A DNA stretch of 64,000 nt, taken from the NCBI GenBank assembly GCA_947479915.1, contig CANKAU010000007.1, positions 16,190 to 80,189 on the forward strand, read 5' to 3'. Origin of the DNA: Chloroflexota bacterium (GTDB lineage Bacteria > Chloroflexota > Dehalococcoidia > UBA2979). Below the pieces are notes generated by a model. The model was not told the DNA's origin and did no database searches. It saw nothing but the letters and a program-made list of their open reading frames with translations. Positions within the stretch are counted from its first letter, which is position 1. Every line of letters begins with the position of its first letter. Positions 1 through 34,454 of this stretch are shown one piece after another. The position numbers were made by a program, and so were the translations under genes.

Positions 1-539
1 GCGACGAGCTGCGCCTTCAGCTGCCGCCAGACCGCCGGGAGGTAGCGCACGTCGTCCAGCGCGTATCGGAGCTGATCCTCGGACAGCGGTCGGCGCGACC
101 ACTCGGTGTACTGCGCGCCCTTGTCCAGGTGCACGCCGGCCATGCGCTCCACGAGCGCGCCGTAGCCGATCTGCTCGCCCATGCCGAGGAATGCCGCGGC
201 GATCTGCGTGTCGAAGACCTTCGTCGCGCGAACACTGAACGCCGCGCCGATCAGCGCGAGGTCCGCCTGCGCGGAGTGGATGATGACCTCGACGTCATCG
301 CGGGCAACGAGGTCGATGACGGGACGCGGGTCGACGCGCAGCGGGTCGATCGCGGCGACGGTCGGGGTGTCGTGATCGCCCCAGCCCACCTGCACCAGCG
401 AGAGCTCGGCGACGTAGCGACCTTCGGTCATGAACTCGAGGTCGAGCGCGAACCAGCCGCACCGCGCGATCTCGGCGGCGATGGATGCCACCTCGGCGGC
501 ATCCGTGACTGGGGTCGGAAGTTGTTGTTCGACGGTCAC
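1..539 (-). CDS. rnd: Ribonuclease D (3'-5' exonuclease), N-terminal part; C-terminus lies upstream of the window
   Basis: Reverse-strand translation reads VTVEQQLPTPV...ALDLEFMTEGRYVAELSLVQV...IIHSAQADLALI...VFDTQIAAAFLGMGEQIGYGALVERMAGVHLDKGAQYTEWSRRPLSEDQLRYALDDVRYLP, matching the DEDDy RNase D family. GTG start at 537-539 (alternative 582-584). This frame is not in the supplied ORF list. Confidence 0.75.
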   Translation of the reverse strand, partial: MTVEQQLPTPVTDAAEVASIAAEIARCGWFALDLEFMTEGRYVAELSLVQVGWGDHDTPTVAAIDPLRVDPRPVIDLVARDDVEVIIHSAQADLALIGAAFSVRATKVFDTQIAAAFLGMGEQIGYGALVERMAGVHLDKGAQYTEWSRRPLSEDQLRYALDDVRYLPAVWRQLKAQLV

Positions 540-652
540 CGTCGCGACGATAACACGCGCAGCCGCTGAGAACGCCTCCCGCACGGGCGGTGAGCCGCGT
601 CCGGAGATATGCTGGAGCCACCATCCCTCAGTCCAGCAGCCGGAGCGCGGCC

Positions 653-1321
653 GTGACGAACCCCCTTCCCGACGAGGAACGCACCGAGCCGTTGCGGCTC
701 ACGGTGGTCTCCGACTTCATCTGACCGTGGTGCTACATCGGTCTCGTGGAGATCGAACGGCTGTACCGCAACTGGGACATTCAGCTCGACTGGGCGCCCT
801 TCTTCCTCGACCCGTCCATCCCGCCGGAGGGCCGTCCGCGCGCCCCGCAGGCGCCCGGTAGCCCCGAGACGCCCGTGGAGGCCCGCGGCAAGCGCCTCGG
901 CCTCGACTTCCGTCGAGGTCGCACGTTCACGCCGCACACGATCCTGTCGCTTCAGGCGGGCGAGTGGGCCGCCGCGACCGGGACGACGCAGCAGGTGATC
1001 GACTTCCACCGGGCGCTGTTCAAGGCGTACTTCACGGACTTCGAGGACCTGATGCAGATCGACACGCTCGTCCGGCACGCCGACGAGGTGGGACTGGACG
1101 GCGCGACGCTGCGCGAGGTGCTGGAGCAGGGCACCTTCGCCGACACGACGAACGAGGCGATCGAGCAGTCCTACGCGGTGGGCGTGCAGGCGATCCCGAC
1201 GTTCATCCTCGACGAGAAGTACGCGGTGGTCGGCGCGCAGGAGTACGACACGCTGGAGCGCGTGATGGAGCAGCTCAAGGCGAAGCGCCGCGAGACGCCC
1301 CTCCCCGACCCGCACGCGTAG
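653..1321 (+). CDS. DsbA/FrnE-like thiol:disulfide oxidoreductase with an in-frame TGA at 722-724 in place of the first Cys of the CPWC motif (candidate selenocysteine, otherwise a pseudogene)
   Basis: From GTG at 653 the frame reads MTNPLPDEERTEPLRLTVVSDFI-TGA-PWCYIGLVEIERL..., aligning to the FrnE N-terminus (KIDVWSDIACPWCYIGKRRLE). The listed ORF 746..1321 is the downstream remainder. High GC3 continues upstream of the TGA. Confidence 0.55.
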
Positions 1322-3740: not shown

Positions 3741-5264
3741 TCAATCCGAAGCGTGATGGTCTTCCGTGAGGCGAGCGCGCACGAGGTGGCGCTGCACCTT
3801 CCCGGATGCCGTGCGCGGCAGCGCGTCTGTGCCCACCTCGATGCGGCGCGGCACCTTGTACGCGGCGAGCCGCGCGCGCAGGTGCGCATCGATCGCCGCG
3901 ACGTCGAGGCCACCCGTGCCGGCTGCCGGCACCACGACCGCAACCACGAGCGCGCCCCAGCGCTCATCCGGGATGCCGACCACCGCGCATTCCTCGACGC
4001 CCGCGAACGCGAGCAGTGCGGACTCGACCTCGGCGGGGTAGACGTTCTCTCCGCCGGAGACGATCAGGTCGTCGCGCCGGTCGGCGACGTAGAGGTAGCC
4101 CTCGTCGTCGAGGTACCCGAGATCCCCCGTGTGCAGCCACCCGTCGCGGATCGCCTCGGCAGTGGCCTCGGGCCGGCCGAGGTAGCCGGCGCAGACGGTC
4201 GGTCCGCTGACGACGATCTCGCCGATCTCGCCGGACGCCGCCTCTGCGCTCACGCCCTCGGCAGTCGCGACCTCGATGCGGACGGTGGTGCCGGGCAGCG
4301 GCAGCCCCGCGGAGCCGAGCTTGCGCAGCGCGTCCGCCGAAGACAGCGTGGCGACCTGCGAGGCGGTCTCGCTGAGGCCGTAGGTCTGCAGCACCGGCAC
4401 TCCACGCGCGGCGGAAGCCTCCAGCAGCGGGCGCGGCGCGGGGCCCCCACCGAGCAGCACGGCACGGAGCGTCGAGGGGTACGGCGCGTCGTCGAGCGCG
4501 TACATGCGCTGCAGCATGTTCGCAACGACCGATAGCAGCGACACGCGCTCCTCGCGCACGGAGCGCACCACGCGCGCCTCGTCGAAGCGCTCGTGGATGA
4601 CGGCGGTCGTGCCGTAGATCGCGCTGCGCAGCAGGATCGACAGCCCACCCACGTGGTACAGCGGCAGGCATGCCAGCCAGCGATCGGCCGCCTCGACACC
4701 GAGGTTCGCGGCCGACGCCACGGCGCTCCAGTAGAAGTTGCCGTGCGTCAGCACCGCGCCCTTCGGGCGTCCCGTAGTGCCGGACGTGTAGATCACGCTG
4801 TGCGGCTGCTCGAACGGGATCGAGGTCGACCCGACGAGCGGCGTCGCCGTGTGCCATGCCTGGTCGTCGGCGGGCAGCAGCGTCACGCCTGCCTCGGCGG
4901 CGGCGGCGCGCGCTTGCTCGAGGTGATCGGCGTCCGCGATGAGGTAGCGCGCGCCCGCGTCGCGCAGCTGCCACGCGATCTCGCCCGCAGTGAGTCGTGC
5001 GTTGTGCGGGGCGAGCATGCCGCCGGCGCGCGTGATCGCGTGCGCGAAGACCGCGAAGCCGTTGCCGTTCGCGTGCAACAGACCGACCGGTTCCCCCGGC
5101 GCGATGCCGAGCGCGGCAAGCCGCCCGGCCGCCGGTGCCACGCGCGCCTCGAGGTCCGCGTAGGTGAGCGCTTCGCCGTTGCACTCGACGGCGAGCGTGT
5201 CGGAGTGCGTCACAGCGCGCCGCGCGACCCAGTCGCCGAGGTCCACCGAGAGCAGTTCCGGCAT
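3741..5264 (-). CDS. menE: o-Succinylbenzoate-CoA ligase (AMP-forming)
   Basis: Adenylate-forming enzyme motifs (YTSGTTGRPKG, GYGLSE) and position in the men operon. Start reassigned to MPELLSVDLG (ATG at 5262-5264); the upstream part of the listed ORF is an Arg-rich artefact. Confidence 0.85.
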   Translation of the reverse strand: MPELLSVDLGDWVARRAVTHSDTLAVECNGEALTYADLEARVAPAAGRLAALGIAPGEPVGLLHANGNGFAVFAHAITRAGGMLAPHNARLTAGEIAWQLRDAGARYLIADADHLEQARAAAAEAGVTLLPADDQAWHTATPLVGSTSIPFEQPHSVIYTSGTTGRPKGAVLTHGNFYWSAVASAANLGVEAADRWLACLPLYHVGGLSILLRSAIYGTTAVIHERFDEARVVRSVREERVSLLSVVANMLQRMYALDDAPYPSTLRAVLLGGGPAPRPLLEASAARGVPVLQTYGLSETASQVATLSSADALRKLGSAGLPLPGTTVRIEVATAEGVSAEAASGEIGEIVVSGPTVCAGYLGRPEATAEAIRDGWLHTGDLGYLDDEGYLYVADRRDDLIVSGGENVYPAEVESALLAFAGVEECAVVGIPDERWGALVVAVVVPAAGTGGLDVAAIDAHLRARLAAYKVPRRIEVGTDALPRTASGKVQRHLVRARLTEDHHASD

Positions 5265-5274
5265 GGCGCTTCCT

Positions 5275-6387
5275 CTACCCCGTGACCCAGTCACCCTCGG
5301 CGACCTGCGCCCACGCGCCGTCCTGCGGCGCGATACCGAGGCCGGGCGCATCGAACGCGCGGAGCATGCCATCGTGCGCGACAAGCGTCTCCGCCACGAG
5401 GTCAGCCGCGAGGTGTTCGCCGGTGCCGAGGCCGTGCGCGATGCCGCCGGGGATCGCCCCGCCGATCGCGCTCGCGAGATGCAGTGCCGCCGCCGTCCCG
5501 ATCGAGGAGTCGAACGTCGTCGTCGCAAACGCGCCGATGCCCAAGCGCGCCGCGCGCTGCGCGATCGCGAACGCGGGTCGGAGTCCCCCGAGGAACATCG
5601 GCTTCAGGACGACGAGGTCCGCCGCGCGCAGTTCGAGGACGCGCTCCAGCGTTGCGGGGTCAGTCACTGACTCATCGGCGGCGATCTTCGGCGCCTCGTC
5701 CCCCAGCGCACGCGACGCCTCGCGCACGCGGGCGAGTGCCTCGACGTCGCCTGCGGCCACGGGCTGCTCGATCAGCTCGATGTGCAGCGGCGCGAGCGCG
5801 CACACGGCTGCGATCGCCGTCCACTCGTCCCACGCGCCGTTGGCGTCGAGGCGGATCGCGGCGTCCGGGACGGCATCCCGCAGTGCGTGGATCCGCCGCA
5901 CGTCGTGCTCGGGGCTGGCGGTGCCCACCTTCGCCTTCAGCACGCGGTAGCCCTGCGCGCGGGCCTCCGCGCCAAAGCGCGCGGTCTCCTCGGGCGTGCC
6001 TTCGCCAATGACCGCGTTCACGCGCACCGCCGGCGCCACGTGCTCCGTCAGCAGCGCGGCGATCGGCACCCCGGCGCGTTGCCCCTCGAGGTCGAGCGCG
6101 ACGACGTCCAGCGCGCAGCGCAGCGCCTGCACTCCGGGCGCACGAGGATCGAGCGCTTCGGCGAGCCCCGCGAGCAGCCCGACGTCGTGCCGCGCCAGCA
6201 GCGCGAGTACGTCTTCGATCGTGCCGTAACCGAGTGATGCGATGGGTGAGGCCTCGCCGTAGCCGACCCGCCCGTCGTCGTCGCGCACCTCGATCAGCAC
6301 GCCGCGGCGATCCGCCATCGCGCCGTGCGCCGCCTCGAAGCGGTGTCGCATCGGCAGGCGGAACGCGCGCCAGCGGAGAGATGCCAT
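5275..6387 (-). CDS. menC: o-Succinylbenzoate synthase (enolase superfamily)
   Basis: MASLRWRAFRLPMRHRF... with the enolase-superfamily fold pattern, 370 aa. ATG at 6385-6387 lies 3 nt from the menA stop. The listed 663-aa ORF over-extends across menA. Confidence 0.85.
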   Translation of the reverse strand: MASLRWRAFRLPMRHRFEAAHGAMADRRGVLIEVRDDDGRVGYGEASPIASLGYGTIEDVLALLARHDVGLLAGLAEALDPRAPGVQALRCALDVVALDLEGQRAGVPIAALLTEHVAPAVRVNAVIGEGTPEETARFGAEARAQGYRVLKAKVGTASPEHDVRRIHALRDAVPDAAIRLDANGAWDEWTAIAAVCALAPLHIELIEQPVAAGDVEALARVREASRALGDEAPKIAADESVTDPATLERVLELRAADLVVLKPMFLGGLRPAFAIAQRAARLGIGAFATTTFDSSIGTAAALHLASAIGGAIPGGIAHGLGTGEHLAADLVAETLVAHDGMLRAFDAPGLGIAPQDGAWAQVAEGDWVTG

Positions 6388-6389
6388 GA

Positions 6390-7328
6390 CTAGTTCGAGA
6401 GGCCGATCGCGAGCAGCAGCCCGAAGATCAGGTGCAGGCGCGCCATCGCACGGAGCGCGGCGTTCAGCGGCGGCCCGTCCGTACGGCGCAGCGAGACGGC
6501 GACCGGCATGATCGCAGCGGGCACGGAAAGCCACGACAGCAGCACGAGGCCGGAGAAACTCCCGAGGAGCCACAGCCCCGCTGCCGCGACGTACGCCCCC
6601 GCGACCACGACCACCAGTTCTGCGCGCGCGAGCCGCCGACCGAGGTACACCGCGAGCGTGTACTTCCCGGCGAGCCGGTCCTGGTCGATGTCGCGCACGT
6701 TGTTCACCACGAGGATCGCGGTCACCGTCAGCGCCACGGGCACCGACGCCGCGAGCACGTTGCTCGTCACCCGACACGCGTCCACGGCGCAGGACTGCAC
6801 GTAGTACGTCCCGGCGACCGCGACGACGCCGAAGAAGATGAACACGAAGACCTCGCCCAGGCCGCGATAGCCGAAGGGCCACGGGCCGCCGGTGTAGGTG
6901 ACCGCTGCGAGCATCGAGGCGAGCCCGATCGCGACGATCGGCCAGCCTCCGAGGTACGTGAGGTAGAGGCCGGCCACGGTCGCGAGCGCGAAGAAGGCGA
7001 TCACGCCCAGCGTGACCTGCCGTTCGGACAGCAGCCCGCGCTGCGTGACGCGGATGGGGCCGAGGCGCGTGTCCGTGTCCGCGCCTCGACGAAAGTCTGA
7101 GAGGTCGTTCGCGAGATTCGCGCCGGCCTGCAGAGCGAGCGCACCGAAGAGCGCCGCGAGCGCGGCCAGTGGCGCGCGGATGCCATCGTGCACGGCGACG
7201 CCGGTGCCCACGGCGACCGGAACAACGGCGGCGGTCAGCGTGGGCGGGCGGATCGCCATCAGCCACACGCGGAAGCGGCTCATCGTCGGCTCCGAGGCGG
7301 CACGACCGGCGGCCGAGGCCTTAGCCAT
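6390..7328 (-). CDS. menA: 1,4-Dihydroxy-2-naphthoate polyprenyltransferase (UbiA family)
   Basis: Polytopic membrane protein with the [15 protein letters not shown] motif. The N-terminus aligns to MenA. Overlaps the menB stop by 8 nt. Confidence 0.85.
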
Positions 7329-8151
7329 GGAACGGCAGTCGCTGGAACTTGCTGAAGTCGGGCTGGCGCTTCTCGACGAACGAGTTGCGGCCTTCCTTCG
7401 CCTCGTCGGTGGTGTAGTAGAGCATCGTCAGATCGCCCGCGAGCACCTGGAGGCCCGTCGCGCCGTCCGTGTCCGCGAGGAACGCGTTCTTCAGGAAGCG
7501 GATCGCGGTGGACGACTTCGCGAGGATCTCGTTCGCCCAGGTCACGCCCTCGGCTTCGAGGTCTTCGAGCGGCACGACCTTGTTTACGAGGCCCATGTCC
7601 AGCGCCTCCTGCGCACCGTACTGGCGGCAGAGGTACCAGATCTCGCGGGCCTTCTTCGTCCCGACGAGTCGCGCGAGCATGGACACGCCATAGCCCGCGT
7701 CGAACGAACCGACGCGCGGGCCGGTCTGCCCGAAGCGGGCGTTCTCTGCGGCGATCGTGATATCGCAGATGACGTGCAGCACGTGGCCGCCGCCGATCGC
7801 GTAGCCCGCCACGAGGGCGATCACCGGCTTCGGCATCTCGCGGATAAAGCGCTGGAGCGGGAGCACGTTCAGCCGCGCGCTGCCCTCGGTGTCCACGTAG
7901 CCGGCGTGGCCGCGGATGCGCTGATCGCCGCCGGAGCAGAAGGCGCGGCCGCCGGCGCCGGTGAACAGCACCACGCCGATCGCGTCGTCCTTCGCCGCGT
8001 CCATGAACGCGTCGGCCAGCTCGTCGATGGTCAGCGGGCGGAAGGCGTTGTGCACCTCGGGGCGGTTGATGGTGATCTTGGCGATCCCACCCGACTTCTC
8101 GTAGACGATGTCGGTGTAGGTCTTGGCCGCCTGCCAGCGGATGTCGGTCAT
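7321..8151 (-). CDS. menB: 1,4-Dihydroxy-2-naphthoyl-CoA synthase (crotonase fold)
   Basis: [39 protein letters not shown]...FCSGGDQ... is unmistakably MenB. ATG at 8149-8151. Confidence 0.95.
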
Positions 8152-8174
8152 CGGTCCCCCTGCACGTTTCGGGA

Positions 8175-12555: not shown

Positions 12556-13095
12556 TCAAGGCACATCGAACAGATAGGGAGTCCCGTAGGCATGAAAGTA
12601 CGAGCCATTCATCGTCTCGACCTTGAAGGCTGCACAACTTCTACGAGCTGGGATGAACCCCTCGAGAGCTGCCGACGACAGAATGAACGTGACGCTAGCG
12701 GTCCCATCCGCGTCGGACGTGATGTCGACCGGCAGATACCTTCCTTCAAAGTCGAGCGGGCCGAACCAAACCACCAGGCGAGTTGTTGCGGGAAAGCCGC
12801 TAATCCTGAGAGTTACGCGATCCCCGAGGGCGGGGGCCGCAGGAACGATACCGAGGCTTGCTCCCACGAAGGTTGGGAACCCCTTTGTACTATCCGCGCA
12901 ATCCCGTTCGCTGATTGCTGTTGAAGCCACGGTGGGTGTCATACCGGGCGTCGCGCTGGCCGTTGGCGCGAGACTCGCGGTCGCCCTCGGACTCACCGAT
13001 GCGGGCGCGGGCGCGACGATCGGTCGCCGCATGCCGCATCCCACGAGAAGCGTCATCGCCAACACGAGGGGCACGAGGTGCTTCACGCGGCGCAT
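12556..13095 (-). CDS. Putative lipoprotein (tandem paralog A)
   Basis: MRRVKHLVPLVLAMTLLVGCG gives a lipobox signal peptide. An SD (GAGGTAG) precedes the ATG at 13093-13095. GC is lower than the surrounding genes. Confidence 0.6.
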   Translation of the reverse strand: MRRVKHLVPLVLAMTLLVGCGMRRPIVAPAPASVSPRATASLAPTASATPGMTPTVASTAISERDCADSTKGFPTFVGASLGIVPAAPALGDRVTLRISGFPATTRLVVWFGPLDFEGRYLPVDITSDADGTASVTFILSSAALEGFIPARRSCAAFKVETMNGSYFHAYGTPYLFDVP

Positions 13096-13145
13096 GCTAC
13101 CTCGGGCGGGCCGACCTCGCGCGGGGGGCGCGGGGTGCCTCGGTG
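13064..13145 (-). repeat. About 80-nt segment (5'-UTR plus first 12 codons) duplicated at 13829-13910
   Basis: Near-identical stretches ...acgaggtgcttcacgcggcgcatgctacctcgggcggg(c/g)cg(a/g)cctcgcgcggggggcgcggggtg... occur at both loci. Both encode MRRVKHLVPLVL. Confidence 0.7.
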
Positions 13146-13168
13146 GGGGCACTTCCAGTATAGGCAGC
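13140..13168 (-). promoter_or_regulatory. Promoter-like element (TATACT -10) upstream of lipoprotein paralog A; second copy of the menF upstream element
   Basis: Minus-strand sequence GCTGCCTATACTGGAAGTGCCCCCACCGAG matches the element at 12476-12503 at about 26 of 28 positions. Confidence 0.4.
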
Positions 13169-13181
13169 GGGGTCGTGGGGG

Positions 13182-13859
13182 CTACGGCGACTGCGGCGGT
13201 GGCGGAGCGACGACGACCGAGCCGGGAGGGTCTGCGTATTGCGTGCACCCCGATACCAACCAGAACAGGCTGACGCTCCCAACGCCGTCGTCGGTCATGA
13301 GGACCCGCATCCCGCTGGTCGAGACAGGTGCATCTAGGAAGTCGATGATTGACCCGGTCGACGTCCGTGAGACGGCGCGCAGGTGCCATGCAGGGGCGGG
13401 CATCCCTGCTCCATCCAACATCATTCGTGCCAACCGGCCTGGATCGCCTTCTAACGCCGTCCAAAGGTACTGACCGGGACAACTACCGAACAGGATCGCT
13501 GGAACGAGAGCGCCGGCCAGTGTCCCCTCCCCGCAAGAGGGCTGCCGATCCTTTCGACAGGGTTGGGCCGCACCCTTCATGTAGGGGGTGAGCGCGATCG
13601 AGTCACGAGCCAAGACCGCGGTGATGAAGGCGTCGACCGGCCCGACGCCTGTCATCGGCGGTGCGTCCCACGCGCGGACTGGCGCCGTTCGGATCGGCGT
13701 TGGAGCGGTTGCCGGTGGCGTCGACGTTCCGACCGGCTGGGCTGTCGCACTCGTCGTTGCCGTCCCCGTCCCCGTCGAGGCGGTCGGGGGCGGCTGGGTG
13801 CAGCCCGCGAGGAGCGCGGCAGCCAGCACGAGGGGGACGAGGTGCTTCACGCGGCGCAT
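13182..13859 (-). CDS. Putative lipoprotein (tandem paralog B)
   Basis: MRRVKHLVPLVLAAALLAGCT gives a lipobox. The N-terminus and leader are identical to paralog A. The body is Thr/Pro-rich and diverged. Confidence 0.6.
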   Translation of the reverse strand: MRRVKHLVPLVLAAALLAGCTQPPPTASTGTGTATTSATAQPVGTSTPPATAPTPIRTAPVRAWDAPPMTGVGPVDAFITAVLARDSIALTPYMKGAAQPCRKDRQPSCGEGTLAGALVPAILFGSCPGQYLWTALEGDPGRLARMMLDGAGMPAPAWHLRAVSRTSTGSIIDFLDAPVSTSGMRVLMTDDGVGSVSLFWLVSGCTQYADPPGSVVVAPPPPQSP

Positions 13860-13910
13860 GCTACCTCGGGCGGGGCGGCCTCGCGCGGGGGGCGCGGGGT
13901 GGCTAGACTG
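13829..13910 (-). repeat. Second copy of the duplicated leader and signal-peptide segment
   Basis: See the repeat at 13064-13145. Confidence 0.7.
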
Positions 13911-13946
13911 GCGGCAGCGAACACCGCGCGACCTCGCCATTCCGAC

Positions 13947-14147
13947 ATGGGGGTTCCGATGCCTGAGCAGCACACCGGCTTCAAGATTGGCGAGAACGGC
14001 GTCGAGGGGAAGTGCTCCCTCTGCGGCACGTATGTCATCAAGGGTGGCGTGAAGTTCCGCGAGAAGTCCGTCCTCTGCTCGGAGTGCGCCGCGCGCCAGG
14101 CGAAGATCGGCAACCCGTACGGCGCCACCCCCGGCCGCCGCGAGTAG
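13947..14147 (+). CDS. Small zinc-ribbon protein (CxxC...CxxC), 66 aa
   Basis: MGVPMPEQHTGFKIGENGVEGKCSLCGTYVIKGGVKFREKSVLCSECAARQAKIGNPYGATPGRRE. GC3 is high and the gene is divergent from lipoprotein B. Confidence 0.5.
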   Translation: MGVPMPEQHTGFKIGENGVEGKCSLCGTYVIKGGVKFREKSVLCSECAARQAKIGNPYGATPGRRE

Positions 14148-14210
14148 TCGCGCCGGCCTCGCGGCCCGCGTGACCGCCGAGGCCCACCGCCCCTACCGCC
14201 CCCACCGACC

Positions 14211-14612
14211 ATGAGCGCGATCCGCACCTTCTGGCGCACCGGCATCCTCGGGCGCTGCCCGGAGTGCGGGCGCACCTCGATGTTCAACTCCTACTACGGG
14301 CTGCACGAGCGCTGCGCGGTCTGCAACACGCGCTTCGAGTCCAACTCCGGCGAATGGCTGGGCGGCACCGCCTTCGGCTACACCATCGGCGCGCTGGTCG
14401 CACTCGCCCTCGCGCTGATCGAGGTGCAGTGGGGCATCTTCGCCGCGATGGGCCTGTCGCTGGCGTGGACCATGGGCGTGATCGCCGCGATCGCCCTCGC
14501 AGCGACGGTCGTCGGCTACCGGCCCGCGAAGGCGATCTGGTTCGCGCTGGTCTACGAGATGGGCTTCATGGCCGTCGGCGACGACCCGCCCGGGACGCCT
14601 CGACCCCGCTAG
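14211..14612 (+). CDS. DUF983-type membrane protein with N-terminal zinc ribbon
   Basis: CPECG...CAVCN followed by two transmembrane helices. Confidence 0.7.
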   Translation: MSAIRTFWRTGILGRCPECGRTSMFNSYYGLHERCAVCNTRFESNSGEWLGGTAFGYTIGALVALALALIEVQWGIFAAMGLSLAWTMGVIAAIALAATVVGYRPAKAIWFALVYEMGFMAVGDDPPGTPRPR

Positions 14613-14620
14613 CCGCCGCG

Positions 14621-14851
14621 CTACCGCGCCGCGACGGGCGGCACGAGGACGTGCAGCACGGACGTGAGTGCCATCGCCAGCACGAGCAGCGAGGCGAGCG
14701 CGATCGGCGTCGCCGCGGCCCACGCGAGGAACGCGGAGTACGGCCGCAGTCGTCCCCACGCCCAGCGCCCCACGAGGAACGCGCCGAGCCACGGCAGCGC
14801 GTAGACCACGCCCCACCCGGCCTCGATCGCCAGCGTCTCCAGATCCGGCAT
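14621..14851 (-). CDS. Small hydrophobic membrane protein (76 aa), hypothetical
   Basis: ORF with high GC3 and two predicted TM helices, convergent with the DUF983 gene. Confidence 0.4.
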   Translation of the reverse strand: MPDLETLAIEAGWGVVYALPWLGAFLVGRWAWGRLRPYSAFLAWAAATPIALASLLVLAMALTSVLHVLVPPVAAR

Positions 14852-14931
14852 GTCCTGATGCTAGCGCGAGAGGGGCACCTCGCACCGGCGATATACTCGG
14901 GCGCGGCGAAGCACGCCACGGAGGTGACGCG

Positions 14932-16680
<1,749 letters not shown>

Positions 16681-16683
16681 GGC

Positions 16684-17589
16684 GTGACTTCGGACCAGGG
16701 GCCTGGGCAGCAGCCGGCACCCGCGCCCGACGATCCGTCGGGTACGCCGGTCCCACCGGCGCCCTCGGCACCGCCGGCTGCGCCAGCGCTTTCGCCGTTC
16801 GCCCCCGGCCGCTGGGGCTGGGCGTGGATCGGGTTGTCCGTCGCGTGGACCCTGTGGGGCCTGGCGGGGCGCCCGCTGCCCGCGGGCTGGGTGGCTACGC
16901 GACCGTCTGCCGAGGCGACGCGACCGCCGGTGGCTCGCCAGCCGAACCCGGCCGCCGCCACGCCCTCGACCGGGTCTCCGCTCACGAACTCGTCACCACC
17001 CCGCCCGGGTAGCCCGACGTCATGGGAGCCGGCCGTGCGGGTCGAGAAGGGCTTCGTCCTGGCCGCCGATCTCCCGCCCGGCAACTGGGAGACGCACGTC
17101 ATGACTTCGTCGCCGTGGGTATCGCAGCAGACACCGAACTGGGGCCACCAAGCACTGCTCGGACGCGGGGTGAAGATCGAGCAGATCATCCTCGACCTGC
17201 CGCCGACCGCGGATCGCGGTCGCATCCAGAGTGCCTGGCGCGCCCTGATGGGCAAAGACGGCACGACGCCGAGCCAACTGCCCGCTGGCGGGAGCGCGCT
17301 CCTGACCAGTCTGGTCACCCGTCAGAATGCCGCCATGGAGCGGCTGTCGGTGGAGTCGATCCGGCCGATCGTCCCGCGCTACCCCGACGAGCAGTGGGGG
17401 AACTGGGCGTTCTCAATCATCACGGCGCCCGCCCGCAGCAGCATGGTCGCCGACTCGTTCGAGTGGTCCTCGGGCCGCTTCGCTACCCTGTTGATCATCG
17501 CCCGCACGGGGGATGCTCCGCCGTTCGACACGATCGAGTTGCTCCGCAAGGCCCGCGCACGCCTCGACGACGCGCAGAAAGCGAACTGA
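16684..17589 (+). CDS. Hypothetical protein with Pro-rich N-terminus and one TM segment
   Basis: GTG start 3 nt after the previous stop. Coding-like GC3. No recognisable domain. Confidence 0.45.
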   Translation: MTSDQGPGQQPAPAPDDPSGTPVPPAPSAPPAAPALSPFAPGRWGWAWIGLSVAWTLWGLAGRPLPAGWVATRPSAEATRPPVARQPNPAAATPSTGSPLTNSSPPRPGSPTSWEPAVRVEKGFVLAADLPPGNWETHVMTSSPWVSQQTPNWGHQALLGRGVKIEQIILDLPPTADRGRIQSAWRALMGKDGTTPSQLPAGGSALLTSLVTRQNAAMERLSVESIRPIVPRYPDEQWGNWAFSIITAPARSSMVADSFEWSSGRFATLLIIARTGDAPPFDTIELLRKARARLDDAQKAN

Positions 17590-17591
17590 AC

Positions 17592-18740
17592 ATGCCTGAT
17601 GACGCGTCCGAGGCTGTCGAGATCCACCGCGGGCTCAACGGCGTCTACTTTGACCGCAGCGGCACGAGCGACATCGACGGCAAGGCCGGGGAGCTGCGCT
17701 ACCGCGGCTACTCGATCCATGACCTCGCCGAGCACTCGTCGTTCGAGGAAGTGACGTACCTCCTGCTGTACGGCGAGCTGCCGACGCGCGCGCAGCTGGC
17801 GGCGTTCGACGCCGAGCTGAAGGCGGCGCGCACGCTGCCGGAGGGGGTGCTCGAGGTGATCCGCGCGGTGCAGGGCGCACATCCGATGGACGTGCTGCGC
17901 ACCGCCGTCTCCGCGCTCGCCGCGTTCGACCCGGACACCGCGGACAACAGCCGCGAGGCGACCGTCCGCAAGGGCATCCGCCTCACCTCGCAGGTGCCGA
18001 TGATCGTCGCGGCGCACCACCGCATCCGGCAGGGCCTGCCGATCGTGCCGCCGGACAACTCGCTCAACCACGCGGGCAACTTCCTGCAGATGCTGAAGGG
18101 CGAGCGCCCGTCCGAGGATGCCGTTGAGCTGATGGACATGGACCTCGTGCTGCACGCGGAACACGGGACGAACGCCAGCGCGTTCACCGCCCGCGTGGTC
18201 GCGGGCACGGACGCGAACCTGCACGCCGCCACCACCGCCGCGATCGCCGCGCTCTCCGGCCCGGCGCACGGCGGCGCCGCGGAACAGGTGATGCTGATGG
18301 CGCAGGAGATCGGCGCACCGGAGAACGCCGCCGCCTACGTGAAGGCGAAGCGAGCCAACCGCGAGGCGGTGATGGGCTTCGGGCATCGCGTGTACCGCGT
18401 CGAGGATCCGCGCGCGCGCCACATGCGCGAGGGAGTGAAGCGGCTGTCGCAGGAGATGGGTCAGCCGCAGTGGTACGAGATCCTCGAGGCGACCGTGGAG
18501 GCAATGAAGCCCTACGCGCGCCTGGGGGTCGCCGTGAACGTCGACTTCTACGCGGGCGTCGTCTACTACCTGCACGGCATCCCGGAGGATCTGTTCGTCC
18601 CGATCTTCGCGATCGGCCGCACCCCCGGCTGGGCCGTCCAGGTCCTCGAGCAGTTCGAGCACAACGTGCTCATCCGCCCCCTCACGGTGTACAACGGCCC
18701 GCCCCCGCGCGACTACGTCCCGATGGAGCGCAGGGGGTAG
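17592..18740 (+). CDS. Citrate synthase (or 2-methylcitrate synthase), about 380 aa
   Basis: MPDDASEAVEIHRGLNGVYFDRSGTSDIDGKAGELRYRGYSI...GFGHRVY... matches the citrate synthase family. Confidence 0.9.
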   Translation: MPDDASEAVEIHRGLNGVYFDRSGTSDIDGKAGELRYRGYSIHDLAEHSSFEEVTYLLLYGELPTRAQLAAFDAELKAARTLPEGVLEVIRAVQGAHPMDVLRTAVSALAAFDPDTADNSREATVRKGIRLTSQVPMIVAAHHRIRQGLPIVPPDNSLNHAGNFLQMLKGERPSEDAVELMDMDLVLHAEHGTNASAFTARVVAGTDANLHAATTAAIAALSGPAHGGAAEQVMLMAQEIGAPENAAAYVKAKRANREAVMGFGHRVYRVEDPRARHMREGVKRLSQEMGQPQWYEILEATVEAMKPYARLGVAVNVDFYAGVVYYLHGIPEDLFVPIFAIGRTPGWAVQVLEQFEHNVLIRPLTVYNGPPPRDYVPMERRG

Positions 18741-18744
18741 GGGA

Positions 18745-19596
18745 GTGCCACCGCGCGGCCTGCCAATCGCCGTCCCGGCAGATCGCCCCCTAAGGGGCGA
18801 TGAGATCGAGTTGCTATTGGCGTGGATTTTCACGCGCCCAAGACCGGACTACGAGTCCCGGTTTCAGTTGGGGACCTTCTTCAGCGAGATCGGCGACAGT
18901 CTCGGCACGCTGGCAAAAATAAACGGAGGACAGGCCGTTGTCTTCGCCCAAATTCGAAGCCTGATTTGGAAATGGGTCGTTGGGGGCTTCGTTGTTCCCT
19001 GCGGCAGCGCAGAGCAATTCGACGCCACTGAATCCGGTCGCGTGTTCCTTAGAGGAGTGGCCGATGACCGCCACCTCGCGGTAATCGAGGGCACGCTCGC
19101 CGCAAGGCTGCGCCGTGACATCCCCACGATTGACGAGGCGGTGGTCTTCTACGCCGATCAGAGCCAGCGATGCTTCCTCTCCGCTCTATATCAGCCGTCT
19201 GTCGTCATGCTTGGCTTAGCGAACGAGATGCTCGTTCAGACCCTTTTCGATGCGCTCCTTTCAGTGGAAGCAGCAGCAGGCATCCCGCCCTACCAGCCTC
19301 GACGAGGGAACACTTCGGTCGTGACGAAGATGGACTGGCTCGAGCTCCGATTTCGGGAGAATCGGACGCTGATCGGCCGGTACCTAACCGCCGCGGGACA
19401 GCCCAGCCGCTGGATCGACGATCTCCCGATGCTTCTCGGTCAGTCAAACGCCCTACGCCTCGTGAGGAACGACAGCGGCCACCCGAGTCCCTACCGCGGC
19501 GAGTATGAAGACGCGCTCGGTTTCCTCACACTCTTCCCGAAGATCGCGCAGGCTTTCACCGAAACGACTGTGGCTCTCGAAGCCCGCCGGCCATGA
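18745..19596 (+). CDS. Hypothetical protein of atypical low GC; C-terminal RLVRNDSGH (R-x4-H) motif reminiscent of HEPN/DUF4145
   Basis: GC drops to about 55-60% from 18795 to 19560 against about 72% in the flanks, with A/T-ending codons (cta, ttg, att, aaa, ata, caa). The stop overlaps the next start (ATGA). The true start may be the in-frame TTG near 18811. Confidence 0.55.
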   Translation: MPPRGLPIAVPADRPLRGDEIELLLAWIFTRPRPDYESRFQLGTFFSEIGDSLGTLAKINGGQAVVFAQIRSLIWKWVVGGFVVPCGSAEQFDATESGRVFLRGVADDRHLAVIEGTLAARLRRDIPTIDEAVVFYADQSQRCFLSALYQPSVVMLGLANEMLVQTLFDALLSVEAAAGIPPYQPRRGNTSVVTKMDWLELRFRENRTLIGRYLTAAGQPSRWIDDLPMLLGQSNALRLVRNDSGHPSPYRGEYEDALGFLTLFPKIAQAFTETTVALEARRP

Positions 19597-20099
19597 CCAC
19601 CCTCCCCACCGCGCTCGCGATCCTCGAGGGGACGCCGCGCGTGCTGCGCGCGATGGTGTACGGGGTGCCCGAGGCGATGCTGCTGCGCGTGCCGGAGAGC
19701 GGCGACGACAGCGGGTGGTGCGTGCGCGACGTCCTCGCGCACCTGCTAGTGAACGACCGGATCGCCCTCGAACGCTTTCGGCGCATCACGGTCGAGGATC
19801 ACCCGGCGATCGCCAACTTCGACGAGGAGGCGGTGCTCGCTGCCTCGGGCGCGCGGGAGCGGCCCATCGCCGCGCTCCTGGACGAGGTGGCGCGCGGGCG
19901 GCTGGAGCTGGTCACGTACCTCCACGGGCTGACCGAGGAGCAACTCCAGCGGGGTGGCGAGCACTCCGCCGTCGGCCCGATGCGCAGCATCGAACTGGTG
20001 CACCACCTCGCGTGGCACGACCTCAACCACATCCGGCAGGTCGCCACGCTGCTGGCCGAGCCGCTCCACGAACCTCGAGGCCCACTGCAGGCGTTCTGA
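19593..20099 (+). CDS. DinB/YfiT-like metal-dependent hydrolase family protein
   Basis: DinB_2 pattern (VRDVLAHLLVND...HHLAWHDLNHIRQ). Confidence 0.75.
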   Translation: MTTLPTALAILEGTPRVLRAMVYGVPEAMLLRVPESGDDSGWCVRDVLAHLLVNDRIALERFRRITVEDHPAIANFDEEAVLAASGARERPIAALLDEVARGRLELVTYLHGLTEEQLQRGGEHSAVGPMRSIELVHHLAWHDLNHIRQVATLLAEPLHEPRGPLQAF

Positions 20100-20158
20100 C
20101 GCACGAGATGCGGGATCGAGGCGGCGATCGTGTGCCTCGATTGCTCTACCCTGCTCGC

Positions 20159-20825
20159 CATGACCAGCGAACGACCGGCTACCGGCGCGACCCTCCTATC
20201 GACCTTTCGCCACGCCGCCCGCGTGCACGGCATGCTGGGCGAGAGCGAGCCGCTGAATCTCGACACCGCGTTCCGCGCGGTCCGCGACATGCCGTGGGCC
20301 GAGGCGAGCGACCTGCACCCCGAGACGGCGATCGGGGAGTGGCGCGGGACCGGGCGCGAGAAGCAGCTGCTGCTCGCCGCGATCCTCGACGCGCTCGGCT
20401 TCGAGACGGATCTGCTGGCGGTCACGCACGAGTTCGAGCCGGAGAGCGCGCCGTGGCTCCCGCCCGCGCTGATGGACGAGGTGCGCGCGGCGCCCGTACC
20501 GGACGTCCACCTGCTGCTGCGCGTGCAGACCAACCGCATGCTCGAAGAGTGGATGACGATGGACGCCACGTGGCCGCTGGCGCTCGGCGACCTCGGCCTG
20601 CCGGTGAACGACGGCGTCACACCCGGCCGCGACCACCGCCTCGCCTGCGATCCGGTCGAGGTCTACCACCTCCCGGACGTCGACGAGGACGAGGACGAGC
20701 CGGACGCGCTCTACGAGCTGATCGAGCGCATCCTGCGCGACCACGTGGGCGACGCGCCCGGCGCGTGGGAGCGGCGGCAGCGCTTCATGGGCGCGCTGGC
20801 GGAGTGGCTCGGCGCGCCTCGATAG
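20159..20825 (+). CDS. Hypothetical acidic protein
   Basis: ORF with coding GC3. No recognisable domain. Start chosen at MTSERPATG. Confidence 0.45.
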
Positions 20826-20860
20826 GCCGTGCGGGTAGCGGTGCGCTAGACTTCGACGCC

Positions 20861-21193
20861 ATGAACCGCACGCAATCGATCCGCGCCACCCTGCTCTACT
20901 CACTGGCCGGCACCGCCGTCTGGATGGGCCTCCTGCTCTACTGGGAGCAGTACACGCCGCGCGACGCCGCGATCATCTCGCCGCTGATCTTCGTCATGTT
21001 CTTCTCGACGATGCTCGCCTCGAACCGCCTGTCGGCCGCGCTGGCACGTCGCCTCGACGCTCGTCGCGCGGCGAACGCGCCGCAGCGGGGCCCCGCGGTC
21101 GTGGAGGCCACAAGCGAGCGCGCGGAGCACAACCAGCGCCGCCGCGAGCGTCTCCGCGCCGAGCGCACTCGCGCCGACCGCCGCAAGCGTTAG
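20861..21193 (+). CDS. Small membrane protein (2 TM) with Arg-rich C-terminal tail
   Basis: MNRTQSIRATLLYSLAGTAVWMGLLLYWEQ...ISPLIFVMFFSTMLA... with coding GC3. Confidence 0.4.
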   Translation: MNRTQSIRATLLYSLAGTAVWMGLLLYWEQYTPRDAAIISPLIFVMFFSTMLASNRLSAALARRLDARRAANAPQRGPAVVEATSERAEHNQRRRERLRAERTRADRRKR

Positions 21194-21253
21194 CGCGAGC
21201 CGCTGCGCCGGGGACGAGCACCTCGGACGCACCTCGACCGCACGTGCTCGCCG

Positions 21254-22360
21254 CTACGCGCAGGCCTCGATGATCGCCTGGGCCATCTCCTCGGTGCGGA
21301 GTTGGACCACGAGCGGATCGTGCAGGCCGTTGGTGACGTACGCGACGGCGAGGCCGAGGGACGGGTCGGCGTAGGAGATCGTGCACTGCTGGCCGCTGTG
21401 CCCGAAGACGCCCGGCCGGTCGTACGGCGCGAACACCCCGCCCACGATCACCCCGAGGCCGTACGAGGACGGCAGGTGGCTGCTCAGGTCCATGTCCGTG
21501 CGGACGTGCACCCGCGTCATGTCCTCCACCGTCTCGGGACGCAGCAGACGCACCTCGCCGCGCTCCGGGAGCGTGAGCACGCCGCCCTGCTCCAGCATCG
21601 CGTAGAAACGCGCGAGCGCCTCCGCCGTGCCGATGCCGTTCGCCGCGGGCAGCTGTGCCGTGAGCATCTCGCGCGAGGCGAACAGCGCGGCGATGCGCGT
21701 CGTGCGGTGCTCGGAGCCCTCAGGATCCTCGAACGTCACGTCGGACATCGCGCGGGGTAGCGCGACGACGCTCGGGTCGTCGACGCCAAGCGTCGCGTCC
21801 ATGCTCAACGGCTCGAAGATCTCCTGCGCGAGGAAGTCGCGCGGCATGCGTCCGTCGACGCGCCGCATGACCTCGCCCAGTGCGAAGCCGTAGGTCAGCG
21901 GGTGGTAGCCGACGGCGGTGCCCGGCGGCCAGAGCGCGGGCAGCGCGGCCGTGGCCGCGGCGAGGGCGCCCCAGTCGCTGGCACGCTCCGGCGGGAAGTC
22001 CTGGGGAAAGACGGGGAAGCCGCCCTGGTGCGTGAGCACGTGCCGCACGGTGCACGCAGCCTTGCCGCCCGCGGCGAACTCCGGCCACACCTCGGCGATC
22101 GGCATGTCGAGGTCAAGCGCGCCCCGCTCGACGAGCATGTGGATCGCGACCGCGGTCACCGGCTTCGTCGCGGAGAACCACTCGAGTCGCATGCCCGGTA
22201 GGGCCGCGTCCCCCAACCGCAGGTCGAGCACGGGGAGGCCGTCGCGGTAGATCCCGAGCTGCGCGTCCGGATGCCACCCGCGCTCGAAGTGCGTGCGCGC
22301 CACCTCTTCGATGCGCGCGAGACCGGCCGCCGTCAGGCCTCGAGGTTCCCCGACAGCCAT
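21254..22360 (-). CDS. Serine hydrolase of the beta-lactamase / esterase (class C-like) family
   Basis: SATKPV (S-x-x-K) motif; 368 aa. Confidence 0.8.
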   Translation of the reverse strand: MAVGEPRGLTAAGLARIEEVARTHFERGWHPDAQLGIYRDGLPVLDLRLGDAALPGMRLEWFSATKPVTAVAIHMLVERGALDLDMPIAEVWPEFAAGGKAACTVRHVLTHQGGFPVFPQDFPPERASDWGALAAATAALPALWPPGTAVGYHPLTYGFALGEVMRRVDGRMPRDFLAQEIFEPLSMDATLGVDDPSVVALPRAMSDVTFEDPEGSEHRTTRIAALFASREMLTAQLPAANGIGTAEALARFYAMLEQGGVLTLPERGEVRLLRPETVEDMTRVHVRTDMDLSSHLPSSYGLGVIVGGVFAPYDRPGVFGHSGQQCTISYADPSLGLAVAYVTNGLHDPLVVQLRTEEMAQAIIEACA

Positions 22361-33568: not shown

Positions 33569-34454
33569 GCGTGCGGCGTCTGCGCCAACGGGTGCGCTGC
33601 CTTGGCCTTCCGGGGTGACCCTGATCGCGGCTGCGTGGGCGACTCGCTCGGCGCCGTCGCCGGAGCGGAGCGGGGTGGAGGCCCTGCGACGATCCTACGA
33701 GGCAGCAGCCCCGCGTCGCAAACCACCGGCCGGCAGCGGCAAGTGGATTCGCGCCCGCGCCTCGGCGGGGGCTACGATCCCCGGCATGTGGGAAGCACCG
33801 GGCCGCGATCGAGGATCCTCCGAGCCGCCGGGCGATGCGCCCACGGGTGGTGACGCCCTCGGCGGGGCTCCTGACTCCAGCCGCCCGGCGAACCCGTGGC
33901 CGCGGCTGCTCGCGTTCGCCGCCGTGGTGGGCATCGTCGTCGTGCTGACGGGGACGTGCCTCGTGTCCTACGCGCGGCCGCCAGAGCGCGAGCTGCGCGC
34001 CTCGTTCGCGGAGTTCAGCATCGCGGTGCCGAAGTTCCTGCCTGTCACCACCTTCGGCGCGGACGCCGGGGGACGCACCTTCGGCGCGTGGGTGACCGTG
34101 AACGCCGACGGCCGCGTCTTCGCCGTGCTGTCGAGGTCGCCCGAGACCGGGTGCCACGTCCGCTGGGACGGCGGCGCCCCCGGAGCAGCGCTCCCCGACG
34201 GACAGTTCATCGACCCCTGCGGCCCCGCGCGCTACGGCGCGAACGGCGCGGCGCTGAACAACACTGCTCCCCGCGACCTGCACACCTTCCCCGGCCGCGT
34301 CGAGGGCCGTCGCGACGTCATCGTGCCGATCGCCACGCTCATCCTCGGCGCGTGCCGCACAGACGGCGCCACGGGCTGCTCGAAGACCACCGGTGCAGAG
34401 ACGCGCGCGCTCCCACAAACAGGACTGCCGCCCGAGGTCGGGCGGCAGCCGTAG
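33567..34454 (+). CDS. Hypothetical membrane-anchored protein (one TM). Start uncertain; alternative ATG at 33786
   Basis: High GC3 from 33567. TM segment WPRLLAFAAVVGIVVVLTG. The C-terminal domain has conserved Cys/His but no clean Rieske motif. Confidence 0.45.
   Translation: MRAASAPTGALPWPSGVTLIAAAWATRSAPSPERSGVEALRRSYEAAAPRRKPPAGSGKWIRARASAGATIPGMWEAPGRDRGSSEPPGDAPTGGDALGGAPDSSRPANPWPRLLAFAAVVGIVVVLTGTCLVSYARPPERELRASFAEFSIAVPKFLPVTTFGADAGGRTFGAWVTVNADGRVFAVLSRSPETGCHVRWDGGAPGAALPDGQFIDPCGPARYGANGAALNNTAPRDLHTFPGRVEGRRDVIVPIATLILGACRTDGATGCSKTTGAETRALPQTGLPPEVGRQP

Follow-up and report, generated by a model that had tools for sequence, protein, structure and literature searches.

What kind of gene separates the citrate synthase gene from a DinB_2 gene in an uncultured member of the Chloroflexota, and how did it come to stand there? 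The question is raised by a stretch of 64,000 nucleotides (nt) from contig CANKAU010000007.1 (assembly GCA_947479915.1, lineage Dehalococcoidia), here called the window, in which a single complete open reading frame (ORF) of 283 amino acids (aa) occupies the space between these two genes. A first-pass annotation, made without database searches, had taken this ORF for a horizontally acquired toxin or abortive-infection (Abi) gene ending in a HEPN-type motif. The analysis presented here leads to the conclusion, which we consider probable, that it is a horizontally acquired cargo gene in a hypervariable slot, whose product joins a winged helix to a HEPN ribonuclease (RNase) domain and acts as sensor and effector of a defence-type system in one protein. 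The gene is most likely an uncharacterised single-gene immune or toxin module.

The foreign origin is apparent from the composition. The guanine-plus-cytosine (GC) content of the cargo ORF is 0.613 compared to 0.703 for the window, and at third codon positions (GC3) it is 0.711 compared to 0.901±0.031 in a set of 34 reference genes, the minimum of which is 0.839. An index similar to the codon adaptation index gave 0.387 for the cargo gene and 0.712±0.063 for the reference genes (z=-5.2), and rare codons, defined by a relative adaptiveness <0.1, account for 21.2% of the cargo codons against a reference mean of 4.6% and a maximum of 8.8%. Taken locally over 200 base pairs (bp), the GC content lies at 0.55-0.645 across 18800-19599 and is back at 0.68-0.73 beyond, and of about 6300 sliding 800-bp segments three are as GC-poor as 18795-19596, each of them overlapping the cargo ORF. 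The first-pass annotation had reported a low-GC ORF with deviant codons, the deviation starting near 18795 and ending at the stop codon, and these measurements bear it out; the ORF taken as a whole has 61% GC, where 55-60% had been given, and the background has to be lowered from the 72% given there to about 70%.

A comparison of related loci showed, in species with a citrate synthase of 72-97% identity, a conserved synteny consisting of an acetyl-CoA-synthetase-like gene (acs), the citrate synthase gene, the slot, a DinB_2 gene in some of them, the gene of a 231-aa protein and a beta-lactamase-like gene. The target gene was found at none of the 41 loci, either by tblastn or by a search of six-frame translations with the hidden Markov model (HMM) of its family, in which every match had E>2. 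The cargo gene, an extreme outlier in composition and codon usage with no copy at the syntenic locus of relatives, was thus acquired horizontally, as the first-pass annotation had proposed. An ordinary host gene, such as a housekeeping RNA-processing factor whose composition would follow from its amino-acid content or low expression, could account for the co-directional operon, tightly coupled on both sides, and for the presence of the gene in every contig of its population from several sample series. The deviation, however, lies at synonymous sites, where both GC3 and rare codon use fall outside the full range of the reference genes, the related species hold other genes or none at the syntenic site, and the distribution of the family is sparse and patchy; a host gene is accordingly very improbable.

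The interspecies sequence homology ends exactly at the citrate synthase stop codon, and in every species the next gene begins 3-7 nt past this stop. It is preceded in each case by the AGGGGG, likely a Shine-Dalgarno sequence, with which the citrate synthase gene ends. What the slot holds varies between the species (Table 1). It includes recognised defence genes, namely Abi_alpha in locus L045 and a nuclease-type PDC-S11 gene in L016, besides empty sites and genes of host-like composition. Three loci (L011, L012 and L014), which belong to the nearest relatives, share a low-GC family (GC 0.58-0.65) with a conserved R-x6-H ('R..(L/D)NK.KHG') and conserved Trp residues, for which no Pfam or PADLOC match was obtained and which is a candidate new defence gene. 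The ORF in L051, of GC 0.54, matches HEPN_Apea (0.016) and DUF4145 (0.19), both weakly, and is a candidate for a second and unrelated HEPN cargo. Membership of either in the target family was considered and rejected, the hhalign probabilities against the family alignment (A1, described below) being 0.1% for the three-locus family and 1.4% for the L051 ORF, not significant. The slot hence combines conserved flanks, mutually exclusive cargo and empty sites; since its content differs between species and is often of defence type, the target gene sits in a cargo hotspot.

The junctions of the cargo gene are exact on both sides, and the ATGA overlap of its stop with the downstream DinB_2 start, noted in the first-pass annotation, is present. 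This coupling is a consequence of the slot position without a functional link to DinB, because the unrelated PDC-S11 cargo in L016 overlaps the DinB start identically. For the same reason, and because DinB_2 occurs without the target in L013, L051, L016 and L034, a role of DinB_2 as cognate partner or antitoxin was rejected. A scan of 14000-21500 gave no promoter-like sites, and the terminator scan of the same interval gave a single terminator-like site, at chance level and on the opposite strand; the cargo gene is probably co-transcribed with citrate synthase. No integrase lies within ±10 kb of it, no tRNA or repeats were seen at the locus and the Rfam scan returned no RNA families. The gene does not resemble an integron cassette with its attC site, as judged from the overlap and the absent integrase without a formal attC model search; since the cargo stop overlaps the next start, no space is left for such a site after the ORF.

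The protein identical to the target was found in an unchanging context on no fewer than 24 contigs, which come from several metagenome series and from two metagenome-assembled genomes (MAGs). Wherever a contig encodes the identical citrate synthase or the identical DinB protein, the target gene is present too, and it therefore appears to be fixed in its population. The relatives of the citrate synthase place the host among freshwater Dehalococcoidia/Chloroflexota MAGs.

The family to which the product belongs is sparse. A word-indexed search of 5.8 billion proteins found the target itself only, and with an alignment as query only 6 proteins, while HMMER, run exhaustively on 1.84 billion cluster representatives, gave 127 relatives, 30 of them with E<=1e-10. 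In most cases they have a length of 270-290 aa and an alignment that covers almost the whole protein; the closest relative reaches 37% identity (E=7.8e-45), and the identity of family members to the target is 18-37% overall. They occur patchily in Chloroflexota, Nitrospirota, Acidobacteriota and on one Mycobacterium plasmid. One member, P0051, bears the NCBI name 'DUF4145 domain-containing protein', the remaining named members being 'hypothetical protein'. A spurious ORF was excluded by this 127-member family together with the confidently predicted fold, and the GTG start is supported because the N-terminal 'DRPL' motif (residues 13-16) is also conserved in homologs.

In alignment A1, which comprises 41 family sequences, G81, E161, R241 and H246 are invariant. 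Among 105 members of full length, 104 retain R241, and the same number retain H246 and E161; G157 is found in 103, N242, P247 and R238 each in 102, G245 in 98 and A159 in 97. The R-x4-H motif R241-N-D-S-G-H246 predicted to be catalytic had been placed at the very end of the protein by the first-pass annotation; it is present, about 37 residues before the C-terminus and followed by one further helix. In shuffles of the target protein R-x4-6-H arose in 43% and RNxxxH in 0.5%, so that a lone R-x4-6-H motif is not significant and the weight of the motif comes from its invariance throughout the family. E161, in a core HEPN helix, is probably part of the active site or beside it.

The structure predicted by AlphaFold2 with alignment A1 (predicted local distance difference test, pLDDT, 91.5; predicted template modelling score, pTM, 0.82) showed two domains. 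The N-terminal one, the extra domain anticipated in the first-pass annotation, is modelled as a winged helix with helices at 18-30, 42-48 and 63-79 and a beta-hairpin wing at 83-94, and carries the conserved residues W75, G81, T95 and G98. Foldseek pointed to LmrR (probability 0.97) among winged-helix regulators, with E not below 0.6. The C-terminal domain is an all-alpha up-and-down helical bundle of the HEPN superfamily type, with an insert of about 50 residues forming two helices (residues 175-226), and its RNDSGH sequence sits between helices 227-238 and 254-279, the last two of the core, as expected for a HEPN motif. The protein is thus read as combining a winged helix with a HEPN domain that is DUF4145-like but divergent.

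The link to DUF4145 (PF13643, clan CL0291) is made by the family. Twenty of the 41 A1 members match this profile at E<=1, the best at 1.3e-5, in the C-terminal half of the protein, and residues 145-263 of P0051 align to positions 1-86 of its 88. In ten members scanned singly the scores all remained under the gathering threshold of 23.1 bits (P0051 22.3, P0029 20.5, P0049 18.2 and P0005 17.6), and the target itself gave no match at E<=1; for this reason the target is regarded as a remote relative of DUF4145, not a formal member. The HEPN assignment of the first-pass annotation is in this way borne out by the profile matches of family members and not by the target's own, and the gene was not found to be conserved with host-like composition in relatives. 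The Abi or toxin role proposed there is strongly suggested and unproven: the slot-mates include Abi_alpha/PDC-S47 and PDC-S11, and homologs lie near CBASS, Mrr, integrases and recombinases.

Alternatively, the product might be a non-catalytic protein that binds nucleic acid or regulates, either a transcription factor in which a helical sensor accompanies the winged helix, or a Roquin-like RNA-binding protein with a HEPN scaffold. Against this stands the near-absolute conservation of R241, N242, H246 and E161 at so low an identity, which is the catalytic HEPN signature (PMC3710099). Moreover, a basic recognition helix is lacking, and the gene is of foreign origin and shares its slot with defence effectors; we hold this explanation to be improbable.

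Several observations weigh against a defence RNase. The target protein has no match at E<=1 in Pfam, PADLOC, NCBIfam or PHROGs, and tblastn found no homologs in 50,697 phage genomes. Foldseek gave no match with E<0.6 in PDB, the sequence profile found no HEPN match there, and phmmer and profile searches of PDB sequences returned coiled-coil noise only. The DUF4145 link is transitive and mostly under the Pfam gathering score. In the family consensus the winged-helix domain has a fairly acidic recognition helix, because of which nucleic-acid binding is uncertain and the class of ligand (DNA, RNA or protein) is left uncommitted. The sampled contigs of the gene's own population showed no presence/absence polymorphism, the homolog contexts examined amount to a handful, some of them uninformative, and the RNase and defence roles are inferred for a host that is uncultured.

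The homologs found elsewhere lie in several instances beside defence or mobility genes. P0005 adjoins an operon of the cyclic-oligonucleotide-based anti-phage signalling system (CBASS; HORMA, TIR-SAVED, SMODS and AAA genes) together with an integrase and a Rep gene, P0004 overlaps the end of an Mrr_cat restriction nuclease gene, P0002 adjoins a primase/DnaB-type element in a Chloroflexota MAG, and P0128 has PDDEXK_7 and AAA_5 genes in its vicinity, as well as a transposase fragment. On a mobilizable Mycobacterium plasmid, a distant homolog has a recombinase gene as its neighbour. P0003, which shares 38% identity with the target, gives the appearance of a separate insertion of this family into a host of similar kind: it comes from the same lake metagenome series, has a GC content of 0.605 in a contig of 0.70, lies downstream of dapB and directly abuts a 94-aa DUF2283 gene upstream of it.

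No partner gene was common to the homolog contexts examined. Because the homologs share no neighbour and DinB_2 occurs in relatives without the target, the gene looks self-contained. This bears on the reading of the gene as an addiction or toxin-type selfish module, or as cargo of a mobile element used in conflicts between elements, in which a HEPN RNase would stabilise a DNA segment or act in dormancy under stress and would not serve in defence against phages. There is, however, no antitoxin candidate, the neighbours being citrate synthase and a DinB_2 gene found also where the target is absent, no partner is conserved across homologs, no gene of a minimal nucleotidyltransferase (MNT) lies nearby and the locus is without integrase, tRNA and repeats. 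An addiction module is thus unlikely, if somewhat less so than a non-catalytic protein.

For the preferred reading, that of a defence-type sensor and effector in one protein, the following course of events can be proposed. Since the cargo gene has nearly no intergenic DNA of its own (4 nt behind the citrate synthase stop and an overlap with the next start), read-through from the citrate synthase operon would express it constitutively. From what is known of HEPN biology, the protein would dimerise through its HEPN domains, R241 and H246 of two protomers forming a composite metal-independent RNase site. By analogy with RAZR and AbiJ, the enzyme may stay inactive until the winged-helix domain senses a cue of the invader, nucleic acid or protein, whereupon cleavage of cellular and/or phage RNA would arrest growth and abort the infection.

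A more far-reaching proposal, offered tentatively and with less confidence than the reading above, is that the winged-helix and HEPN family represents an anti-phage RNase, complete in one protein and so far unrecognised, whose sensor domain is of a new type, and that in this freshwater Dehalococcoidia lineage the site behind citrate synthase is an integrase-free 'plug-in' slot, in which promoterless immune effectors are swapped stop-to-start and expressed through a ribosome-binding site within the citrate synthase gene. The effectors in question would be the target HEPN protein, Abi_alpha/PDC-S47, PDC-S11 and at least one family with a conserved R-x6-H.

Table 1. Features of the cargo locus (positions in the window) and content of the slot in related loci (positions in the locus named).
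Feature	Position	Strand	Remarks
Cargo gene	18745..19596	+	complete, 283 aa, GTG start; ORF call; predicted winged-helix and HEPN product
N-terminal winged-helix domain	18745..19059	+	residues 1-105; predicted; putative sensor/regulatory domain
C-terminal HEPN domain	19093..19593	+	residues ~117-283; predicted; DUF4145-like
Codon of E161	19225..19227	+	G157-x-A159-x-E161 motif, core HEPN helix; near-invariant in family
Predicted catalytic motif	19465..19482	+	R241-N-D-S-G-H246 (R-x4-H), residues 241-246; family conservation
Left junction	18732..18744	+	AGGGGG in citrate synthase 3' end; TAG stop 18738-18740; 4-nt spacer
Right junction	19593..19596	+	ATGA; cargo TGA 19594-19596 overlaps DinB_2 ATG 19593-19595
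Citrate synthase gene, left flank	17592..18740	+	conserved; PF00285, E=5.6e-125
DinB_2 gene, right flank	19593-20099	+	PF12867, E=4.9e-13; variably present in relatives
Gene of 231-aa protein, right flank	20130-20825	+	conserved
Region of P0003, homolog of target	L056:1438-2577		possible independent insertion
L045 slot	7139-7966		Abi_alpha (PF14337, 9.4e-55); PADLOC PDC-S47, 2.3e-50
L016 slot	7142-8152		PDC-S11 nuclease-type gene (2.1e-93), NucS_C-like with DUF6416; stop overlaps DinB ATG
L017 slot	7171-7434		MqsA-like zinc-finger gene
L011 slot	5135-5941		low-GC family, 246-268 aa
L012 slot	7136-7942		low-GC family, 246-268 aa
L014 slot	5346-6086		low-GC family, 246-268 aa
L051 slot	188-805		205-aa ORF; contains 'DLRNVLAHG' (RNVLAH, R-x4-H)
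L022, L023, L029 slots			ABC transporter, ArsR and AHSA1 genes of host-like composition
L025 slot			empty, 98 nt
L034 slot			empty, 275 nt

Variation is also found on the right-hand side of the slot. DinB_2 is missing in L011, L012, L014, L045, L017, L018 and L025, and the identity in relatives is about 60% for DinB_2 and 48-68% for the 231-aa protein, compared to 90-96% for the citrate synthase and acetyl-CoA-synthetase-like proteins. As the right-hand genes diverge far faster than those on the left, the variable region may reach beyond the single cargo gene. In L012 (7956-8579) and L045 (7963-8538) a high-GC (0.75) gene for a protein of about 190-207 aa stands in place of DinB_2, before the 231-aa gene; its product has an N-terminal signal- or transmembrane-like segment, a C-terminal hydrophobic segment and no Pfam match. 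The 231-aa protein has no Pfam match either. Its relatives carry the motif 'EWRGTCSGKHYLL', which gives the impression, and no more than that, of a catalytic-Cys motif of transglutaminase or cysteine-protease type, and the window copy reads 'EWRGTGREKQLLL', so that the Cys is lost. Some MAG records with close homologs of the citrate synthase and the same synteny (L012, L019, L020 and L026-L031) bear implausible taxonomic labels (such as 'Dehalococcoides mccartyi', 'Enterobacteriaceae', 'beta proteobacterium'), which suggests mislabelled or chimeric bins.

Other low-GC patches of the window (GC about 0.625), at 1426-1947, 12556-13482 and 13182-13973 on the minus strand, correspond to genes of predicted lipoproteins whose signal peptides (MRRVKHLVPLVLA...GC) are nearly the same and which have the 'G(D/E)RVT..I(S/T)GFP' motif in common; apparently these are secreted paralogs rather than defence cargo. 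At 33650-33740 on the minus strand ARAGORN called a 91-nt 'tRNA-???' with a two-base anticodon, probably a false positive, and Rfam gave no tRNA there at its gathering threshold.

The points of most interest are the winged-helix and DUF4145-like architecture, the exact, cassette-like slot from stop to start codon and the unexplored host lineage. With unrelated cargo packed so exactly from stop to start, it may be asked how one gene replaces another where no recombination machinery is visible. The phage immunity of streamlined uncultured freshwater Chloroflexota is, to our knowledge, almost unknown, and the slot, if the present reading is true, would be a compact defence hotspot in such organisms, its other occupants, especially the 246-268-aa family without database match, being cheap candidates for new defence genes. 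In the same case a family of sensor-plus-HEPN proteins (about 127 sequence clusters, almost all labelled 'hypothetical') would join the single-protein abortive-infection RNases; we know of no DUF4145-type member of these that is mechanistically understood so far other than RAZR.

RAZR (ring-activated zinc-finger RNase, PD-T7-4), the best-characterised analogue, unites a zinc finger at the N-terminus and a DUF4145/HEPN domain at the C-terminus in one protein and acts by abortive infection; it is activated by phage ring proteins and cleaves single-stranded RNA, the R and H being essential (PMC13017515). The target is analogous to it, with a putative sensor domain and a DUF4145-like HEPN domain in one protein, and is not a member of its family. 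The N-terminus of RAZR is a Cys4 zinc ribbon, whereas that of the target is a winged helix and the whole protein, of about 283 aa, has only 2 Cys; the RAZR motif is R146...H154, that of the target R-x4-H in a HEPN domain with a large insert. In PADLOC-DB the target, P0002 and P0029 match no family (E<=1 or E<=0.1), and P0051 matches only a CARF-HEPN model (0.0082). Lacking both the zinc ribbon and a PADLOC match, the target is not RAZR.

DUF4145 is a HEPN family with many N-terminal fusions that is found in restriction-modification and Abi contexts (PMC3710099). The RNxxxH signature, the restriction and Abi contexts and the variable N-terminal fusions are common to it and the target family, whereas the helical insert and the winged-helix fusion of the target are not among the architectures listed in that work. 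The target differs from the HEPN toxins (HepT-MNT, RnlA/LsoA, AbiJ, AbiU2, AbiD/F) in its N-terminal domain and in being without an MNT or other antitoxin gene; no match to Abi_2, AbiJ or similar profiles was obtained for it in the Pfam and PADLOC scans, and an adjacent MNT antitoxin gene was found neither at the locus nor in the homolog contexts, so that it is not one half of a HepT-MNT pair.

In Roquin, a eukaryotic RNA-binding regulator, the HEPN domain is not known to be catalytic. Roquin resembles the target in combining a winged helix, the ROQ domain, with a HEPN domain (PDB 4txa, 4qik), but its ROQ domain is inserted inside the HEPN domain, and the sequences are only 8-10% identical. 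Convergence in architecture is the most likely source of the resemblance.

Defence-gene hotspots between conserved core genes are familiar from E. coli, Pseudomonas and P2/P4 elements, and HEPN Abi-type genes are common in variable islands. The slot behind citrate synthase is similar to these in its conserved flanks and in its diverse, mutually exclusive low-GC cargo with recognised defence families; it differs in that it holds one promoterless gene within a central-metabolism operon, with junctions exactly at the stop and start codons. The cargo gene is best described as the representative of a new, uncharacterised family of a kind that is itself well known, in which a HEPN RNase is coupled to a sensor domain and carried as mobile defence or toxin cargo.
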